Origin: a virus
Taxonomy: Duplodnaviria; Heunggongvirae; Uroviricota; Caudoviricetes
Length of the DNA stretch: 40,815 bases
IMG/VR virus record: IMGVR_UViG_3300010282_000006
Span: 74,315 to 115,129 of that record
Reading direction: 5' to 3' (one strand)
The notes under the pieces are model-generated. The model saw only the letters and a program-made list of their open reading frames with translations, was not told the DNA's origin and made no database searches. This document shows, piece by piece, positions 24,822 through 34,785 of this stretch. Position 1 is the stretch's first letter. Every line of letters begins with the position of its first letter. Made by a program: the position numbers and the translations under genes.

Positions 24822-25358
24822 ATGAAGGCAATGTCAATCAGCGAGGCGCTTAGATATGCGAATCAGAAGATCCGTCCGATGGTCAACGACGCATTGGGCG
24901 GGGAAGTCCTTGATACCGTCGCCGAGGTTGAGCACGCGAAGATCCAGAGTGAAGTGTACGACAAGCACAAGCCGAAGCATTACAAGCGGCGCGGCGATCG
25001 CGGCGGCCTTTCTGATATGGAGCACAATCTTGCAATCAACAACGCATCACTCAAGCTCGGCGCGTTGTATGTTGAGAACGTGACACCGCCCAATCCGTTC
25101 AACAACGGCGTCGGCGTGCGACCAATCGACGGTGTAGGCGGGTACTCATCGACAACTCCGGATGAGCCGATTGCCGGACTTGTTGAGCGTGGAACCTACA
25201 ATCCGAACGGGTACGGATACGATTACTGGTCTGATGCGTTTGCCAGACCGTTTATCGCGAAGACGCGCGCGGCGCTGCGCGGCGGGAAAGCGCAGAAAGC
25301 GCTTGCGGACGGACTCAGACGGAATGGTCTGACGGTTATTACTAAGAAAGGACGGTGA
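24822..25358 (+). CDS. putative neck/tail component (HK97 gp10-like)
   Basis: YKRRG..GGL and RPFIAKT motifs; coupled to TMP. Confidence 0.4.
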   Translation: MKAMSISEALRYANQKIRPMVNDALGGEVLDTVAEVEHAKIQSEVYDKHKPKHYKRRGDRGGLSDMEHNLAINNASLKLGALYVENVTPPNPFNNGVGVRPIDGVGGYSSTTPDEPIAGLVERGTYNPNGYGYDYWSDAFARPFIAKTRAALRGGKAQKALADGLRRNGLTVITKKGR

Positions 25359-28300
25359 TGAGCTTGGCTGAAAATGACGATCTGATGATAGTGGTAAGGA
25401 CGCGGCTGGAGGCTGACGAGGAAGCGTCGGCACAGCGAATTTCGGCGCAGCTTCCGTCCATTGCGGCAAAAATCAACGAGAAGAGCAGCATCAAGGTCGG
25501 TGTGACGCTGGATGAGCGCAACACCGACAGGCTGCAAAACAGCATTTCCCAGCAGCTTTCGCGCATACATGTCGATCCCGTCAATATTGGCATCAAGGTA
25601 ACGGGTGATGCAAAGAAGATGCTGCGAGAGGCAATGGCCGGCAGCGGTATCGACGAGAGCTCCGAGCTGATGAAGTCCATGACGAAGAACCTCACCGGCA
25701 TGGATGTGCAGGTCGGTAAGATCCATGCGCAGTGGGTGAAGGTGGGAAGGCAAAAAGAGCGGCTGCTACAGCTCGACATCTACGGGCGCGATGCGCTTGG
25801 TAAAGAAGTTCTGCTGATGCAGCAGTATGCGCAAAACGGGCGCAAGGTTGATGAGCAGGTAAAGGACGTCACGTTGAATATTGATAAGCTCAACAGACAG
25901 TCCGAGCAGGCGGCGAGAAAAGAACAGCGCGACAACGAAAACCGCCTCAATTACATTCGCGCGCAGAGCGACGCCCTTGAAAAACTTAAGGCGCAGTATT
26001 TGTCGCCGAAGGACGGTCTTCACGGAGAGAATCTGGAGAGCGCCGAGTCGCAATATGCGAAAATATCTGCGAGGCTTGATGAGCTGCGCGCAAAGAACGG
26101 CGCGTTGACGGACGAGGAAAAACGCGGCATTGACGGCGTTATCGCCGAGATGCAGCGCGAGATACAGACCATGAAGCAGGTGGAGTCCGTCGAAGAGAGC
26201 GCGGCGCGCAAGTCAAAAAGTGAAAATGACGCGCGCGTGGCTTCGCTTACCACGTTGTCGTCAAAGCTGGATGCCGTACAGAAGAAGTATCAGGGCTTGA
26301 CCGGCGTGAAGGGCGTGCAGGGTGAAGGCCATCTGAGCGAGCTGAACCGGAAGTATCAGGAAATCTTTGATACGATTACGCGGTTGCAAGGTGCAACTGG
26401 CGCGCTGAGCCAGACGCAAAGGACGGAAATTGACGCGCAGATCAAAGAACTCGACAGGCTAAGCGATCAGTATTACCGTGTTGAGCATGTGGCGACGCAG
26501 CTTCGCACCAAGAATGTCTGGGAGGTCAATTCCGATTATGCGAATGAGCTGGACGTCTACGCGAAGAAGCTGCAAACGTCCGGGCTTTTGACGAAGGATT
26601 TTGAAGAACGTATCGCCTCGCTTCGCAATCAGCTTTCAACCGCGTTTGACAGCAAGAGCCTGACCGACTTTGCAGATCAGTTTGACCGCTTGAAGGGCGC
26701 GGTCGGATCGTTCAAGGCCGGACAGGAGCTTGAGGCGACGATCGGGCGCATCAACAGCGAGATGGCGGTCATGCCGTCTCAGTTCCAGGCGGCGGAAAGA
26801 CGTCTTGAAGGCATAATTCATCCAACCGAAACGCTTGAGGCGAACATGAGGCGGCTTCGGGATCTTTCGGCGCAGGTCAACAGTGAGCAGGACGCCAACC
26901 GCAAGATTGAGGCGTACAACCGGCTGAAACAGACGCTTGCGCTGGTAAATACCGAGATGGCGGCGCTGACGCGAACGCAGAATACTGGACTGCGCGACGA
27001 GAAGCTGACGGCGAATTTGGAGAAGGCGAAGGCGGATCTTCTGACGGTCGGAAGAACGTGGAGCGCGCTCAAGGCTGACAAGGGACTGAATTTGCAGTTT
27101 GAGCAGCTTTTGGCGAATCTCGACCGCGTGAACAATGCCGGAGATCTTTCCAAGTGGCGCGCGGAGTTCAACGCCTTTAAGAGTGAGGTCAAGGCTGCCG
27201 GAAAGAATGTGCAGTCGCTTGGTGACATCCTCAAGAACAACCTTGGCAAGGTTTTGCAGTGGGTGAGCGCAACAACGCTTTTATTCCGTGCGATAAGGTA
27301 CTTGCGGCAAGGCATCCAGACGGTTGTTGACCTTAATACCGCGATGATCGACCTACGCAAGGTGACGAAGGCAACCGGCGAAGAGTACGAGGCGTTTTAC
27401 CGCCAGTCGAATGAGACGGCAAAGCAGCTCAATCTGACGACGCAGGAGGTCATTTCGCAGACGGCCGAGTTTGCCCGATTGGGATATGCACTTGAGGATG
27501 CCTCGAAGCTCGCGCAGAACGCAGCAATCTTCAAGATGGTCTCTCCCGGCATGAGTCAGGAGACGGCGGTTGACGGACTTATCAGCATCGTCAAGGCGTA
27601 CGGCATTGAGGTCGAAGACACAATGGATGGCATCATCTCGAAAATCAACGAGGTGGGTAATAAGTTTGCCGTCAGCAACAACGACCTCGTTGAGGTGATG
27701 ACGCGCGCGTCGAGCGCGATGTCCGCAGCCAACAATACGTTTGAGGAGACCGTTGCGCTTGCGACGGCTGCTATTGAAATCACGAGGGACGCCGCCACGA
27801 CGGGCAATGCCCTGAAGACGCTTTCCATGAGGATTCGCGGCTACGACGAGTCCACGGAGGAATATTCCGAGGACGTTGCCGTTCTGACCGGCAAAATCGC
27901 CGATCTTACAAAGGTCGCAGGGAATGGCGGAAAGGGCGTGAGCCTCTTTGAGGTAGGTGATCCCAACACATATCGTTCGACCTACGCGATCTTGCAGGAC
28001 ATCGCGGCGATCTGGGACGAGTTGACAGACAAGAACCGCGCGCAACTGCTGGAAGCTCTGTTCGGTAAACGTCAGGCGCAGGTTGGCAGCGCGATCCTTT
28101 CCAACTTCTCTCAGGCAGCCGACGCGATGGACAAGATGGCGGACAGCGCAGGAAGCGCCGAGCGCGAGATGGCGAAGGTTATGGAGAGCGTGGAGTACCG
28201 CGCGAACGCCCTCAAGGAAACTTGGGTAGGCATTGCGCAGAATATATTCCAGAGCGACGATTTGAAGCTGGGGATTTCCCTTCTCCAGACTATCTCCAAT

Positions 28301-28396
28301 GTTATTGATACGCTGACCGACAAGCTGGGATTGCTTGGCACGGTCGGCATCGCGGCGACTATCGCGTCTTTGCGTAAGTTGAACGCGACGGCGGGT
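25355..28396 (+). CDS. tape measure protein, exon 1 (1014 codons; unspliced frame reads on to stop at 28471)
   Basis: Long coiled coil plus TMP core (FEETVALATAAIEITRD..GNALKTLSMRIRG); ends at U of the P1 U.G pair. Confidence 0.85.
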
Positions 28397-28609
28397 GAAC
28401 CCAAAGTGACGGGTTTCATGATTGCGCCCGCCTATACCCCGGTGGCGACACGGAACGAGCTTGCGGCATGACCGCAGGCAAGGGGGTATTGGAAAAACCG
28501 ACGAACATGGCTCCGCGTGGAGCTGCGAGTTTAGATCATTCTCGCACGGGAAGCCCGAAAGGGTAATCCGCAGCCAAGCTCATTATACAAGCAGTCTCAT
28601 AAAACAGAA

Positions 28610-28642
28610 CAGAGAGCCGGTGCTACTTTCACCGGCTCTCTG
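28610..28642 (-). terminator. intrinsic terminator for antisense peptide gene
   Basis: 13-bp perfect stem CAGAGAGCCGGTG/CACCGGCTCTCTG followed on minus strand by TTCTGTTTT. Confidence 0.75.
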
Positions 28643-28656
28643 CCGCAGTCTGCGCA

Positions 28657-28740
28657 TTACCTGTCGCGCCTGCTGAGAATTGCGTCGTAGAGAGCCATCG
28701 AAATGAGGTTCAGTACGATGATGTTGATGTACTCAGCCAT
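28657..28740 (-). CDS. 27-aa hydrophobic peptide, type I toxin-like (MAEYINIIVLNLISMALYDAILSRRDR)
   Basis: GGAGGTG RBS 6 nt before ATG; single hydrophobic helix plus charged tail; own promoter and terminator. Confidence 0.65.
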   Translation of the reverse strand: MAEYINIIVLNLISMALYDAILSRRDR

Positions 28741-28830
28741 AGCGTTCACCTCCGTCACGTCCGAAGTGTCGGGCGAATCGCAGAGCGATTGAAGCACAGA
28801 GGCTTGTACGGAGGACAGACTGACAAAACG

Positions 28831-28859
28831 ATTATACTGCGACAGGCAGAGCTTGTCAA
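28831..28859 (-). promoter_or_regulatory. perfect sigma-A/sigma-70 consensus promoter (antisense, inside intron P6 loop)
   Basis: Minus strand TTGACA (28859-54), 17 nt, TATAAT (28836-31). Confidence 0.85.
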
Positions 28860-28999
28860 ATTGTATGGTGAGAGGGTTCAGAGAGCATAATGTCGGCACG
28901 GTCTACGGATTGTGATGGGGTGCTCCAAATCCAACCGCCCGCCAGAAATGGCGGGCGGTCAAAATGATATGCGGTCAAGCCGCCGCAGATCGAAAATGG

Positions 29000-29683
29000 C
29001 TAAAATCTACATCCACAGTTGTTGCATTTCCACGTTTTGCCTATGTCACCGGCTCCAAAAATGCCAAAGGCGTAGACCTTGAGAAAGCTGCCGGTCTTGG
29101 AGATTTTCGTCAGACTGGTAGAGCGGCAATAAGGGCAGGTAGGGATGTTGGCTGCAGGTTTTGGTACGGCGGTTGAAATCGGTTTCCATGTCGAACGATC
29201 AACCAGATCCTTGACGGGTGCTGGAGGTTCGCGCGGGGGAAGGTCGCGAAGAGAGCGGCTACGGTTGAGCTGACCGTATAAGTCATTTAGGTGAGCTTTG
29301 TATTCTTGAGACAATTTATCGCCGATGTTGCGAGGAAAAATCAGTTGCTCAAAATGATCCGCTTCTTTTTCCAAAACGCCGCTCGACTCTGATTGCGGCA
29401 AGTCGATTTCAACGTATGGCGCGTTGCAGTTACACATTGGCTTGCCATTTTTGCTTGGCTGAGCCTCGTTGTAGTAATACTCTCTCGCGCATTTGGCGCA
29501 GACCTTGACACGCGGCTCCTTTGATGAAAGCTGGAACATTGCAACCTGCGACAGAAGTTTTTGGTGGTAGTCGCTTTGCTCCTTCTGCTTGAGATGGTTC
29601 GCAATCGGAAAGCCGCAGTGCGGACAGGACACCGCTGCGGAAGACACTTGCTGATTGCACTCAGGACACACGATAAGCGCCAT
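29000..29683 (-). CDS. triple zinc-ribbon protein (antisense, inside intron P9 region)
   Basis: CPEC..CPHC, CAKC..CNC, CPYC..CNNC; AAAGGAG RBS 10 nt before ATG 29683. Confidence 0.8.
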   Translation of the reverse strand: MALIVCPECNQQVSSAAVSCPHCGFPIANHLKQKEQSDYHQKLLSQVAMFQLSSKEPRVKVCAKCAREYYYNEAQPSKNGKPMCNCNAPYVEIDLPQSESSGVLEKEADHFEQLIFPRNIGDKLSQEYKAHLNDLYGQLNRSRSLRDLPPREPPAPVKDLVDRSTWKPISTAVPKPAANIPTCPYCRSTSLTKISKTGSFLKVYAFGIFGAGDIGKTWKCNNCGCRF

Positions 29684-29713
29684 AAACCACACGCTCCTTT
29701 CTGCTTGCTATGG

Positions 29714-29742
29714 ATTATATCACTAACACAACGGGATTTCAA
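29714..29742 (-). promoter_or_regulatory. sigma-A promoter with extended -10 driving the zinc-ribbon gene
   Basis: Minus strand TTGAAA (29742-37), 17 nt, TG-n-TATAAT (29719-14). Confidence 0.8.
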
Positions 29743-29784
29743 CGATAATCTTCGTATTGATCACACGAGGGTTGGGATGGATTG

Positions 29785-32700
29785 GCAATTATGCCCGTTG
29801 TGGAAGCGCTTCGAGCAACGCAAATTGTTTACGATGACACCATTGCGGCACAGGCGACGTATGCTACACAGCTTACAAGTCTGGATGTTGTTCATCAAAA
29901 AGCGGTGCTGAGCCAGATGAACCTCAACAGTACGCAGCGTGAAGCTATTTTGAATTTTGCAAAGTTGTCAGCCGCAGGACAATCTTATACCGTTGGCACT
30001 TTGGCGTTGGCAGCGGGTGTTGATAAGGTTAGGCTTGCCGAGTCTTTACAGCTTGCCGAGACCGAGCAGTTGACGGCAGAGACGATCGCGTGCGCTGTTG
30101 CGACTGGAGCGCTTCGTGGGGAAGATGCGCAGCTCGTGATTCAGTTTTTGACACATAAGGCGGCGACGGACGGCGTGACAGCATCGACGAATCTGATGAA
30201 CATGTCGCTCAAGGAGACCGCCGCGCTGATGTTGGCGACTCCTATGGGCTGGATCACCATGCTCACCATGCTTATCCCGCTGCTCATTACCGCAGCCAAG
30301 AAATTCAAGGAGTTGTATGACGCGGCGCATCCGACACTTCAGCAGATGCAGGACGACCTTGGTGATGCAGAGAATGAACTGGACGAACTGGATGGCAAGC
30401 TGGACGAGAACAAAAAGCGGATCGCGGAGCTTCGCGCACTGCGCGATGGAGGCACGATTTCCATTGTGGAGAGTGAGGAGCTAAAGCGGCTCGAACGCGA
30501 GAACGAGCTTCTTACCCAGCAAATTCAGCTTCAGAAAGACCTGATTGCCGCGAGGCAGAATGACATTTATACGAAGGCTGCAGAGGATGCGGGCGCATGG
30601 CTCAGTGACAGCGGCTACGAGATCAAAGGTCATGGCAACTCTGAACGGCAGGAGCAGGCGTACACCGGCGCTGGCGGCCTTTCTGCAGCAATTAACGACT
30701 ACAAGACCGCCAAGGCTGCATTCGATCAGGCGGTTGCTAACGGAGCTGCCGCTGCGACGGACGCTGAAAAGAAGAAATTCAAAGAAGCCGCAGACGAGTA
30801 CAAGGCGTCTATGGAAACCGCGCTTGCGCGTATGGTCGATTTGCAGGACGAGGCAATCAAGCTGCGCAATGCGCTCAATCCGGACGATCCGGAATCCGCA
30901 GGGCTGATTCGAGAACTCGATCTCGCGCTTGACCGCATTGCTGTGCTGCAAGATCCTGAATCTGCGCGCAACTCCATTTTCGGTCGCTTCTTTGAAACGG
31001 AAGCAGACCTCACCAACGAGAAAATCGCTGAGTTCAACACATATCTCAGGGAGCTCGGCCTGATTACGGAGGACATCCCGAAGGACGAGCTTGCCGATAT
31101 GCTCAGAAACACAGGCGATGCAGCGGAGGACGAGGCGGACAAAATCAAGGGGCTTATCGACGTGCTCGATAAGTTTGGCGTCGAGTCCAAAGAAATCTAT
31201 GCGCACGGCGGCAACGTGGATCTTCTTGACCGGCGCGTGGTGGAAGTCACCAACGCCAACCTCGGCAAGGTTCAGACGCACGACGCCAACGCACAGGTCG
31301 GCGACCGCATGACGGTGCTCTCGAAGACAATTCAGCACGGTGACGCCGCGCTGGTTGTGACGCCGATTCTCCCGAATGGCGAAATTTTGTCCGACGCAGA
31401 GCTTGACAAGTATGTCGAAAAGGTCGTTAAGGCGGCAAAGAAGGACAAGAGTACCAACTATCAGGCATACGACCAGAATGGTGTCTTTCTCGGTGTGTTT
31501 GGCGATCACGCCACATTTGAAAAGAACAACGAGGAAGCAGAGCGGTTTGCCGAAAGGCTGCATGATATCCATGAGGCAATTCTGGAGGCCGGAAGCGGCA
31601 GCGAGCTTTCCGAGCTGGTTGCGGAGCTGCAAGACCTGACGGAGTACACTCCGAGCGTTTCGACGTTGGCGGAGAAATTTGCCGACGCCGAGGGCAAGGT
31701 TGAAAAGCTCGGCAAGGCACTGCAGGAGTTCGGCAAGGAAGGTTCGATTGCAGCGGACACACTCGCTGAAATCGGCAAGGACTTCGGCGATTATGAGAGC
31801 TATGAAAAATTTGCCAAGGTGCTGATGGACTCCACCTCTACGATGGAGGAGGCGCAGGCGGCGGCTGACGCGCTGGCAAGCGAGTTTATGAACTCGACGA
31901 CGGCGCTTGACATGCTGCGCGAGGGCAATGCCGATCTTGTGAAGGCGATGCTCGAAAAGATTGGCGTGACGAACGCGGATGAAGTTGTGGAATCCCGCCT
32001 GCGGATCGTGCGGTTGGAAGCGAAGGTCGCGGCGCTGGGCTTGGCGGACGCCGAGTGGAGCGTTGTCGAAGAGAAGCTGCGCGAGATCGGCGTGACCAAT
32101 GCGGACATTACCGCGATTGAAGCATTGCGCAAAAAGCAGATTGAGGCGAAAATCGCCACAACCGATTTTGCAACTGCGAACGCAAGCACAATCGCTACGC
32201 TCATTCAGATGGCAAATGCCGCTGGCATTGCCGGAAAGCGGATGGAGATCCTTGCGCAGATGCAGCGTGTTGAGGCGTCTGAGACAGATAAGACGTCCGC
32301 TCGTTATGGCGCATATATGGCAGATGCAAAGAGGCGGCTTCTGGAGGGCTTCACTGACGATTTGAAGGTGGAGTTGCCAGAAATCAAGGTCGTTGTGCCG
32401 AAGGCCAACGGTTCCGGCAGCGGCTCCGGAAGCGATTCTTCCAAGAAGGAAACGGAAAAGTATTTCGCCGAGATCGACCGCTTCCGCGATGCGGTCAAGC
32501 GGCTTGCAGATGCGCAGGAGGAAGCGGAGAGGCTGAACGGCGAGCTTGGGCGCACGGAAGGTCTGTGGGATCAGGTCAAGATTCACAAATCTCTCGTGGA
32601 CACCTACGAGAACGAGCAGACGGCGTTGCACGATCTCAACGAAGAGCGCCGCAAAGCGATTCGAGAAGGGGTCGAGAAGCTGCAAAATCTTGGCTTTGAC

Positions 32701-34785
32701 GTCATCTATGACGCAGAGACCAACGACCTCTTCATCAATAACCTTGAACATCTCAACGATCTTGCCACGACGGATCTCAACAAGTACGAGACGATGGCTG
32801 ACATGTCCGTCAATATTCTCGGTCAGTACGACAACGCCCAAGAAGCGACCAACGGACTCATCAAGGACACCGAGGGCATCATCGACAACATCACCAAGTT
32901 CAACGACGCCAACAAGGAAGGTTCGGAGACGTGGTGGGAGAGACGCGACGCCATTCATGCGTCGAAACAGAGCATCATCGACGATCTTAAACAGATCACG
33001 GAAAACGCGCACGACGCGGTGGATGAAATCCAAAACGTCTATGACACGCTGCACGCGGCGGCAGATGAGTTTGCGGCAAACGACGGCTATTTGACCATTG
33101 ACACCTATCAATCCATTTTGCAGCTTGGCACGCAGTATATGGCGTATCTTTACGATGAAAACGGTCTTCTTGTCATCAACGAAGAGCGTATTCAGGCTGT
33201 GATTGCGGCAAAGACGGAACAGCTTGCGCTGGAACAGGCGCTCACCTATGTGGATCGGCTGAGACTGGCGCTGGAAAAGGGTTCTATTGAAAATCTGAAC
33301 GAGCTGCTGTATGCGACGCAGGATGCGACCGATGCGACATGGGATTTGGTGTACGCCAACCTTAAACTGCTCGATTTGTCGGATGATCAGTTTGCGGCGG
33401 CGATGCACAACATCAATGCGATTCGCTCGCTTGCGGACGCTGCGGTTGCCGGAATCGGAAAGAGCGCCGGAGCGTTTGCCGACTCGCTCAATGAGATGAA
33501 GGACGGGTTGGACAGTATCCTTCGGTACACGATGGATATGCTCAGGCAGCGGATCGAGGATCAGATCGACGCGCTTGAGGAGCAGAAAAGCGCCTACGGC
33601 GATTTGATTGACGCGCAGAAAGAAATGCTGCGCAATACCAAGAATCAGAACGATTATCAGAAATCGGTTGCGTCCAAGCTCAAGGAGATGGCGAAGCTCC
33701 AAAAGGAGATCGCCTCTTTGACAACGGCGGCGGAATCAGGAGACCGAAGCGCGGCTGCGAAGCGCGCGAAGCTCCAAGAAGAGCTTGCCGAGCTGAGCGA
33801 GGATCTTGCGGACGAGCAGAACGAGCACGCTATCGAAGTAGCCGAGAAAGCGCTTGACAAACAGCAGGCAGCTTTTGAGGCGGAGAAGGATGACGAGATC
33901 AAGACGCTACGAAATAGTATTTCTTCTCAACAGAAGCTCTACGATATGGCAATTAGCTATATTGAAAGCCGTTGGGACAAGCTCTATGGTGAGCTGATCG
34001 ACTGGAACACTGAGTACGGCAGCGACCTCAACAGCGATATCGCGTCCGCATGGGACAAAGCGTATGAGGCAGCAGAGCGATACGGAAGCTATGTAAGCGC
34101 GCTGGGAAGCATTGACGCGGACATTGCCGCAACGAGCGGCGGAAACAGAGGAAATACCGCCACTGGCGTTAATACTGCTGTCGGCAGGACGAGCACTTCT
34201 GGCAATGAAGCGATGGCGACGGCATGGGTCGAGCAGATGAAAGCGAACAGCGCGGCGTGGCACAGCGCGAGCGATAAGCGCAAGGCTGATTTGGCTGCTG
34301 AAAACAAGCGTATCGCTAAAGAGGAGCTTCCGGAATGCGGCGTAATCGCAGACATCGGAGACGACGGTGTGTGGTATCTCAAAAACGGGAAGAGGCTCTA
34401 CGACGTCTATCACAGCGGCGGAATCGTTGGCGGTGACGCTTCGCTTAAGCAGGACGAGCTGTTCGCAAAGCTCCAAAAGGGCGAGATGGTCTTATCGCGT
34501 GAAATGGTAGATCGGATGATCCGGCACTTTGATATGCTCAAGAAGCTGGGGGAGTCCATTGCGAGCCGACCGATGGACGGTCGGCTGCTTGCGCAAGATC
34601 TTGCAGCGCTTGGCATCGGCAAGACGGTGAATAACGTGACGAGCAACGAGAGCAGCCGGCCTGTGAGCATCGTGTTTGGCGATACGCATATCAGCGGTGC
34701 GGATAAAAGTACGGTTCAGCAGCATGTGATGCTTACCGAAGGTATGAAGAAGGAAATCGCGCGTTGGCTTGGTTTCCGTATGTAG
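29785..34785 (+). CDS. tape measure protein, exon 2 (1666 aa; spliced product ~2680 aa)
   Basis: No RBS before the ORF-track start; helical/coiled-coil sequence; C-terminal YHSGGIVG..KGEMV TMP motif; in frame with exon 1 after splicing. Confidence 0.85.
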   Translation, partial: AIMPVVEALRATQIVYDDTIAAQATYATQLTSLDVVHQKAVLSQMNLNSTQREAILNFAKLSAAGQSYTVGTLALAAGVDKVRLAESLQLAETEQLTAETIACAVATGALRGEDAQLVIQFLTHKAATDGVTASTNLMNMSLKETAALMLATPMGWITMLTMLIPLLITAAKKFKELYDAAHPTLQQMQDDLGDAENELDELDGKLDENKKRIAELRALRDGGTISIVESEELKRLERENELLTQQIQLQKDLIAARQNDIYTKAAEDAGAWLSDSGYEIKGHGNSERQEQAYTGAGGLSAAINDYKTAKAAFDQAVANGAAAATDAEKKKFKEAADEYKASMETALARMVDLQDEAIKLRNALNPDDPESAGLIRELDLALDRIAVLQDPESARNSIFGRFFETEADLTNEKIAEFNTYLRELGLITEDIPKDELADMLRNTGDAAEDEADKIKGLIDVLDKFGVESKEIYAHGGNVDLLDRRVVEVTNANLGKVQTHDANAQVGDRMTVLSKTIQHGDAALVVTPILPNGEILSDAELDKYVEKVVKAAKKDKSTNYQAYDQNGVFLGVFGDHATFEKNNEEAERFAERLHDIHEAILEAGSGSELSELVAELQDLTEYTPSVSTLAEKFADAEGKVEKLGKALQEFGKEGSIAADTLAEIGKDFGDYESYEKFAKVLMDSTSTMEEAQAAADALASEFMNSTTALDMLREGNADLVKAMLEKIGVTNADEVVESRLRIVRLEAKVAALGLADAEWSVVEEKLREIGVTNADITAIEALRKKQIEAKIATTDFATANASTIATLIQMANAAGIAGKRMEILAQMQRVEASETDKTSARYGAYMADAKRRLLEGFTDDLKVELPEIKVVVPKANGSGSGSGSDSSKKETEKYFAEIDRFRDAVKRLADAQEEAERLNGELGRTEGLWDQVKIHKSLVDTYENEQTALHDLNEERRKAIREGVEKLQNLGFDVIYDAETNDLFINNLEHLNDLATTDLNKYETMADMSVNILGQYDNAQEATNGLIKDTEGIIDNITKFNDANKEGSETWWERRDAIHASKQSIIDDLKQITENAHDAVDEIQNVYDTLHAAADEFAANDGYLTIDTYQSILQLGTQYMAYLYDENGLLVINEERIQAVIAAKTEQLALEQALTYVDRLRLALEKGSIENLNELLYATQDATDATWDLVYANLKLLDLSDDQFAAAMHNINAIRSLADAAVAGIGKSAGAFADSLNEMKDGLDSILRYTMDMLRQRIEDQIDALEEQKSAYGDLIDAQKEMLRNTKNQNDYQKSVASKLKEMAKLQKEIASLTTAAESGDRSAAAKRAKLQEELAELSEDLADEQNEHAIEVAEKALDKQQAAFEAEKDDEIKTLRNSISSQQKLYDMAISYIESRWDKLYGELIDWNTEYGSDLNSDIASAWDKAYEAAERYGSYVSALGSIDADIAATSGGNRGNTATGVNTAVGRTSTSGNEAMATAWVEQMKANSAAWHSASDKRKADLAAENKRIAKEELPECGVIADIGDDGVWYLKNGKRLYDVYHSGGIVGGDASLKQDELFAKLQKGEMVLSREMVDRMIRHFDMLKKLGESIASRPMDGRLLAQDLAALGIGKTVNNVTSNESSRPVSIVFGDTHISGADKSTVQQHVMLTEGMKKEIARWLGFRM

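Follow-up and report, generated by a model that had tools for sequence, protein, structure and literature searches.

The locus described here raises the question whether a loop of a group I intron in a phage tape-measure gene holds a gene of its own, on the strand opposite to the gene that it interrupts, and whether that gene encodes a toxin. The original prediction for this DNA was a self-contained type I toxin-like unit in the intron P6 loop, with the intron RNA itself as antisense partner. The window (the whole stretch that we analysed, 40,815 nucleotides) belongs to a 115-kb record of a temperate phage, classed as a provirus and carrying two tyrosine recombinases. The phage is SPbeta-like, since upstream of the tape-measure gene its relatives have a gene of the YomN family; the sequencing runs in which the stretch occurs are bovine-gut and gut metagenomes according to their records.

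Sequence comparison indicates that the tape-measure gene is interrupted by a genuine group I intron. Four uninterrupted tape-measure proteins (P0012, P0005, P0011 and P0017) align colinearly over the junction between exon 1, which ends with ...KLNATAG (28396), and the second ORF, which starts with AIMPVVEAL... (29785), and the gene is in one piece in ten related Oscillospiraceae prophages, for example those of Dysosmobacter segnis and Hominicoprocola fusiformis. When the intervening sequences of 14 relatives were aligned, 78 consensus pairs emerged, 40 of them with compensatory changes. Covariation was found in P1, P2, P6/P6a, P7 and P8; the U.G pair of the 5' splice site is invariant in all 14 relatives while its neighbours in P1 covary, and P3, the partner of P7 in the pseudoknot, is paired in every sequence and covaries at three positions. 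The intron thus laid out has its U.G at 28396, a core of P1 to P9 from 28397 to about 28990, an antisense cargo after P9, and the omega-G at 29784. This G immediately precedes exon 2, and relative L024 has an identical GGATTG/GCAATTA junction. An end of the intron at G28988, followed by an exon 2 of four codons (IENG, then stop), was ruled out, as the homologues and L024 place the start of exon 2 at 29785. The Rfam model Intron_gpI matched neither the window nor an insert-free relative, even at E<=10, and this family seems to lie outside the current Rfam group I model. Of the best 120 tape-measure homologues, about 100 have a C-terminus that is read from the same intron, which is therefore widespread at the tape-measure site; among INPHARED phages only the 5' core of the intron was matched, in one record. 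On either side of the post-P9 cargo (28989-29003 and 29740-29784) lie short stretches complementary to each other, GAUCGAAAA near 28988-28996 and UCUUCG...GAUC near 29750-29765, with counterparts in L024; a helix between them could bring the remote 3' splice site close to the core.

The unit was said to lie in the P6 loop, and its place can be specified as the terminal loop of P6a. P6 is formed by AGCC/GGUU (28572-75/28875-78) and P6a by CUCAUU/GGUGAG. From one arm of P6 to the other the window has 300 nt, versus 18-53 nt with a plain P6a hairpin in all other introns of the comparison (59 IMG/VR loci and nine further loci from assemblies), and the cassette unit is absent from the approximately 75 related introns examined. 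Public metagenome runs compared over 28300-29900 show that the cassette is optional. Long contigs of 9.6 and 19.7 kb, from two DNA runs of two studies and about 97-99% identical to the window, skip exactly 28585-28860. Contigs from two other studies carry the cassette: one matches 28598-29003 with 8 differences, the other 28704-28854 with 2; the cassette-bearing contigs are about 98% identical and their ends are intact. The insert begins 1 nt upstream of the -35 hexamer and extends 23 nt beyond the terminator stem of the unit that it contains. The joint of the cassette-less contigs has no shared letters, and the insert shows neither a target duplication nor an obvious mobility gene. The empty site consists of a 6-bp P6a closed by the loop UUGUAU, and the first six bases of the cassette, AUACAA, pair with this former loop, which makes the 12-bp closing stem. 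This stem forms on the plus strand with P>=0.96 for 11 of its 12 pairs. Two of these are G.U pairs, whose minus-strand equivalents would be A.C mismatches; the stem therefore serves the intron RNA. Since all other relatives are without the cassette, a gain in this lineage is the parsimonious direction. As far as sequence and fold prediction go, the cassette is enclosed by the 12-bp stem and would be removed together with the intron, which would leave the tape-measure protein uninterrupted. The features of the locus are listed in Table 1.

Table 1. Coordinates of the tape-measure exons, the intron and the antisense units of the window.
Feature	Coordinates	Strand	Evidence
Tape-measure exon 1 (PhageMin_Tail domain)	25355..28396	plus	Domain and homologue alignment
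Group I intron of the tape-measure gene	28397..29784	plus	Colinear uninterrupted homologues; covariation in 14 relatives
P6a closing stem, 12 bp	5' arm 28579..28590, 3' arm 28861-28872	plus	Fold
Optional cassette, 276 bp, whole unit	28585..28860	minus	Skipped exactly in contigs of two studies
Sigma-70/SigA-type promoter, TTGACA-17-TATAAT	28831..28859	minus	12/12 consensus match
Leader, about 84 nt, with anti-SD CCUCCGU (28814-28808)	28741..28824	minus	Sequence, fold, pair probabilities
5'-3' long-range helix	5' arm 28815-28822, 3' arm 28646-28653	minus	Pair probabilities
Shine-Dalgarno region, ACGGAGGUG	28747..28755	minus	GGAGG 8 nt upstream of ATG 28740
27-codon ORF and stop, encoding MAEYINIIVLNLISMALYDAILSRRDR	28657..28740	minus	Coding 28740-28660, stop 28659-57
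Intrinsic terminator, 15-bp stem (9 G-C), 7-nt loop, U run	28598..28644	minus	Consensus scan
Second antisense unit, with zinc-ribbon protein gene 29000-29692	29000..29742	minus	Promoter TTGAAA-17-TGnTATAAT, 29742-29714
Tape-measure exon 2	29785..34785	plus	Homologue alignment

Consensus scanning and the sequence itself place a complete small transcription unit on the minus strand at 28598-28859, and the claim of a self-contained unit held, with promoter, RBS, peptide and terminator each at the position given in the original prediction. The promoter predicted as perfect does match all 12 consensus positions, with the -35 hexamer at 28859-28854, a spacer of 17 nt and the -10 hexamer at 28836-28831. 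It is the sole 12/12 sigma-70 match on either strand of the 115-kb record, for which by our own estimate about 0.04 would be expected by chance; there are four other sites with one mismatch, including the promoter of the antisense zinc-ribbon gene. Transcription is likely to start at G28824, which gives a leader of nearly the 85 nt first proposed, followed as proposed by a ribosome binding site at ideal distance from the ATG. The ORF is indeed that of a 27-residue, single-helix peptide with a charged C-terminal tail (SRRDR). Its net charge is 0, and a Kyte-Doolittle mean of 1.8-2.0 over 15-19 residues is sufficient for a predicted membrane helix. The stop codon lies 12 nt ahead of the terminator stem (28644-28608), which is terminator-like on the minus strand only and is two pairs longer than the 13 bp initially counted. 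The unit is beyond what chance would give.

The same is not true of the pairing between the Shine-Dalgarno sequence and the leader, which had been singled out as a mark of type I toxins. ACGGAGG (28755-49), which covers the Shine-Dalgarno sequence, does pair with CCUCCGU in the minimum free energy structure and in the ensemble, with P 0.72-0.94 per pair, but when the leader was shuffled mean pairing of the Shine-Dalgarno sequence was still 0.84, and the observed 0.99 was reached by 14% of the shuffles; sequestration taken by itself is therefore not beyond chance. The AUG is unpaired in the predicted fold. The whole transcript is strongly structured (z = -2.6), and its two ends come together in a long-range helix of nucleotides 3-10 with 172-179 (P>0.9 for nucleotides 3-9, 0.69 for nucleotide 10), a feature absent from the original prediction. 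All these helices of the transcript are Watson-Crick; they would therefore arise in the plus-strand RNA as well and give no clue to which strand has been selected.

Neither the peptide nor the cassette had a relative in the collections searched. The peptide matched nothing in Pfam, PHROGs, PADLOC or NCBIfam, and Rfam gave no match for the unit on either strand, at the gathering threshold or at E<=10. A degenerate codon pattern for the N-terminal half of the peptide returned 0 matches in viral, metagenome and genome contigs, and one for the C-terminal half 0 matches in viral and metagenome contigs. Among 401 Oscillospiraceae genomes the peptide was not found, and the cassette DNA had only short matches at chance level, one of them in the start region of mutS. 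Neither the phage nor about 0.9 Mb of related loci has a second copy or a paralogue of the cassette. An exact look-up of three window proteins in a cluster collection found none of them.

We favour, with slightly better than even confidence, the reading that the unit is a moron-type accessory mini-gene, expressed from the prophage and encoding a small membrane peptide, lodged in the terminal loop of P6a. Morons are extra DNA relative to close relatives, with a promoter and a terminator of their own suited to expression from a repressed prophage (PMC3594210). The cassette is a discrete 276-bp indel between contigs about 97-99% identical, each allele being found in two studies while all other related introns lack it, and an exact presence/absence of this kind between near-identical phages is closer to what defines a moron than to what defines a toxin-antitoxin locus. 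Its predicted promoter and terminator were both found by consensus scan, in a complete and tightly packed gene layout that includes the only 12/12 promoter in 115 kb. The temperate lifestyle of the phage, the hydropathy of the peptide, the insulation by a plus-strand stem and a terminator that works on paper for the minus strand only all point the same way, as does the fact that this family of introns is a hotspot for self-promoted accessory genes. A deviating base composition, which is usual in morons but not obligatory, was not found (51.8% GC in the cassette versus 53.2% in the phage). This ordinary composition and the lack of any homologue of peptide or cassette wherever we searched count against the moron reading, and so would the 27-codon ORF if, as it could be, it were incidental to a functional RNA in spite of the good Shine-Dalgarno sequence before it.

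A moron-type mini-gene at this place would be expected to work as follows. In the lysogen, host RNA polymerase would read the cassette from the consensus promoter and produce a compact, highly paired minus-strand mRNA of about 220 nt, ending at its own terminator short of the ribozyme core. Translation would be damped by pairing of the Shine-Dalgarno sequence with the anti-SD and of the 5' end with the 3' end, and the 27-residue single-helix peptide would insert into the cytoplasmic membrane. The likeliest role for such a peptide would be interference with incoming phages or another membrane-directed function of the lysogen, and a toxin-like activity at high dose is conceivable. During lytic growth, opposing late transcription through the cassette should silence it by collision and by pairing, and splicing would remove it from the late mRNA.

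If the peptide were incidental, the product could be RNA only: a stable antisense RNA of about 220 nt that pairs with the L6a extension of the tape-measure pre-mRNA and either modulates splicing or triggers double-strand-specific cleavage, with less leaky expression of tail genes in the lysogen, or a timing of this expression during induction, as the outcome. The strong structure of the RNA, its perfect complementarity to part of the intron and the precise delimitation by promoter and terminator are all consistent with this. We nevertheless consider this reading unlikely. The sole target sequence is the cassette itself, so that the insert would be the sole reason for the regulation; large inserts are tolerated in L6, a peripheral loop; no Rfam family was matched on either strand; and the strong Shine-Dalgarno sequence, its ideal spacing and an ORF that ends just ahead of the terminator look like the design of a gene.

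A true type I toxin-antitoxin system, in which the peptide damages membranes and the plus-strand intron RNA, as late pre-mRNA or as excised intron, pairs with the toxin mRNA along its whole length and leads to its decay, appears a little more doubtful again. The general shape of the peptide (a hydrophobic helix with a charged tail) and the consensus ribosome binding site at 8 nt agree with this part of the original prediction, the tight fold with a paired Shine-Dalgarno sequence and a 5'-3' helix recalls hok-type mRNAs, any late transcript is fully complementary to the cassette, and prophages of Clostridia do carry type I systems (PMC7699646). The likeness is one of form, however: the charged tail is short and leaves a net charge of 0, sequestration of the Shine-Dalgarno sequence is equalled by a seventh of the shuffled leaders, no known toxin family was matched in Pfam, NCBIfam, PADLOC, PHROGs or, for both strands, Rfam, and an antisense antitoxin with its own promoter is missing. 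That no antitoxin promoter is evident on the plus strand had already been remarked, and the scan agrees, since no promoter-like site of at least 9/12 occurs in 28000-30000; by eye the plus strand offers only a -10-like TATACT that has no -35. The idea of an addiction module with the intron RNA as antisense meets a difficulty of logic. In the lysogen, the state in which the consensus promoter should have its highest activity, the late pre-mRNA is expected to be absent and thus cannot hold a toxin in check, which is the reverse of addiction logic. The intron RNA is physically possible as an antisense partner, and would fit better as a switch by which the cassette is silenced at the onset of lytic transcription.

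Such a switch can be taken further. The peptide would then be a toxin-like product made only while late transcription is off; on induction of the prophage, the intron-containing pre-mRNA or the excised intron would pair with the cassette mRNA and silence it, and this duplex might in turn act on the splicing of the tape-measure mRNA. We regard this state-sensing variant as improbable; if true, it would amount to a type I-like system with a self-splicing intron as the 'antitoxin', and would make intron loops exchangeable docking sites for self-promoted defence or toxin mini-genes. An equally improbable explanation is that a promoter/terminator fragment, functionless for phage and host, was captured in a tolerant loop by illegitimate recombination, as might be said of an orphan sequence restricted to one narrow lineage and flanked by neither target duplication nor obvious mobility gene, but a chance fragment is unlikely to come with a perfect promoter, an optimal ribosome binding site, an intact ORF, a strong terminator and closely trimmed ends, and the cassette allele occurs with intact ends, at about 98% identity, in runs of two studies.

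The moron-type mini-gene has a close, although imperfect, precedent. The first moron to be described, gene 15 of HK97, is a neighbour of the tape-measure gene, and its product is a small exclusion protein of the inner membrane (PMC3594210). Likewise, the cassette is extra DNA that brings a promoter and a terminator of its own, lies among the tail genes at the tape-measure gene, and has a small predicted product of membrane type; unlike gene 15, it sits inside an intron loop and on the strand opposite to its host gene, not between genes. It also departs from morons in general in that its predicted product has only 27 residues and its GC content is not atypical.

The type I systems of Firmicutes prophages, to which bsrG/SR4 and yonT/SR6 of the Bacillus subtilis prophage SPbeta belong, share with the cassette a small hydrophobic peptide with a charged C-terminal tail, a consensus ribosome binding site, a structured mRNA and the location in a prophage. 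Unlike them, the cassette is associated with no self-promoted antisense RNA gene and has no sequence relation to a toxin family. A hydrophobic helix, a charged tail, a consensus ribosome binding site and a compact mRNA are among the criteria for type I toxin genes, and the prophages phiCD630-1 and phiCD630-2 of Clostridioides difficile carry such toxins with RCd antitoxins (PMC7699646); the cassette peptide is shorter than the C. difficile toxins and its tail is not lysine-rich.

Group I introns that carry cargo are represented by the IStrons CdISt1 and BcISt1 and by the ORF-bearing introns of phage T4 td, nrdB and nrdD. They resemble the present intron in that peripheral loops of the ribozyme accommodate large inserts and splicing takes the cargo out. 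The cargo of the present intron differs from theirs in being neither a homing endonuclease nor a transposase, in being antisense, self-promoted and self-terminated, and in occupying two separate sites, L6a and the stretch after P9. ORF-bearing introns are also described for tail genes of Cluster J mycobacteriophages (PMC3706429), and another paper surveys group I introns of the Bacillus cereus group (PMC2504315). Our literature search returned papers that mention both group I introns and tape-measure genes, and nothing pertinent on group I introns together with type I toxins or with opposite-strand, self-promoted genes in phages.

Examples of morons, of type I toxins in prophages and of group I introns with cargo are already known. 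What is new is an antisense, self-promoted and self-terminated mini-gene of 27 codons in L6a that is polymorphic between near-identical phages, of which we found no description in our literature searches. If the predicted expression takes place, group I introns would offer, in their peripheral loops, safe parking places within an essential late operon for accessory genes driven by a host promoter, and splicing would remove the cost to the interrupted gene. Natural phages that differ by these 276 bases only are a ready pair for probing what a 27-residue prophage peptide does, be it exclusion of other phages, toxin-like action on the membrane, or nothing. L6a is also a second cargo site in the widespread tape-measure introns of SPbeta-like phages of gut Oscillospiraceae; every other member examined of this intron family carries its variable cargo after P9.

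This first site holds very different genes in the related introns, on either strand between P9 and the 3' splice site: zinc-ribbon proteins, a protein with a SocA_Panacea antitoxin domain and an aspartic-protease-like protein. In the window it is occupied by the second antisense unit, whose promoter lies about 40 nt from the 3' splice site; the encoded protein, of 230 aa, has an N-terminal and a C-terminal zinc ribbon, and has homologues at the same spot in many related introns. On the minus strand of 28935-28987 a U-rich run follows both the P9 hairpin, whose 9-bp stem is rich in G-C, and a second hairpin (28987-28970); these may terminate the antisense zinc-ribbon transcript before it reaches the ribozyme core.

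Relatives also encode small single-helix membrane proteins of 42-65 aa right after the zinc-ribbon gene, beside P9 (the genes include L024:11271-11447, L087:6396-6524 and L088:6692-6889). Four of these proteins resemble one another (shuffle p<=0.004), and a search with the 58-aa protein of L024 returned only itself. The 27-aa peptide was considered as a relocated or truncated member of this group and rejected, its similarity to them being no better than that of shuffles (p 0.19-0.57). The window has no small membrane protein gene at the corresponding place, about 29001-29003, where the cassette-free contigs are longer by about 200 bases and where one cassette-bearing run has a loose end, with AGGAGG and then ATG.

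In the related phage of locus L094 (6433-7860) the cargo genes are on the plus strand and include that of a SocA_Panacea protein of 331 aa, preceded by that of a 136-aa protein; these two may be a toxin-antitoxin pair inside the intron. A second branch of the introns (L009:6300-9780 and other loci of the L004-L062 series) has about 3.4 kb between the ribozyme core and the next tape-measure-like ORF, with several genes on both strands, one of which encodes a zinc ribbon like that of the window.
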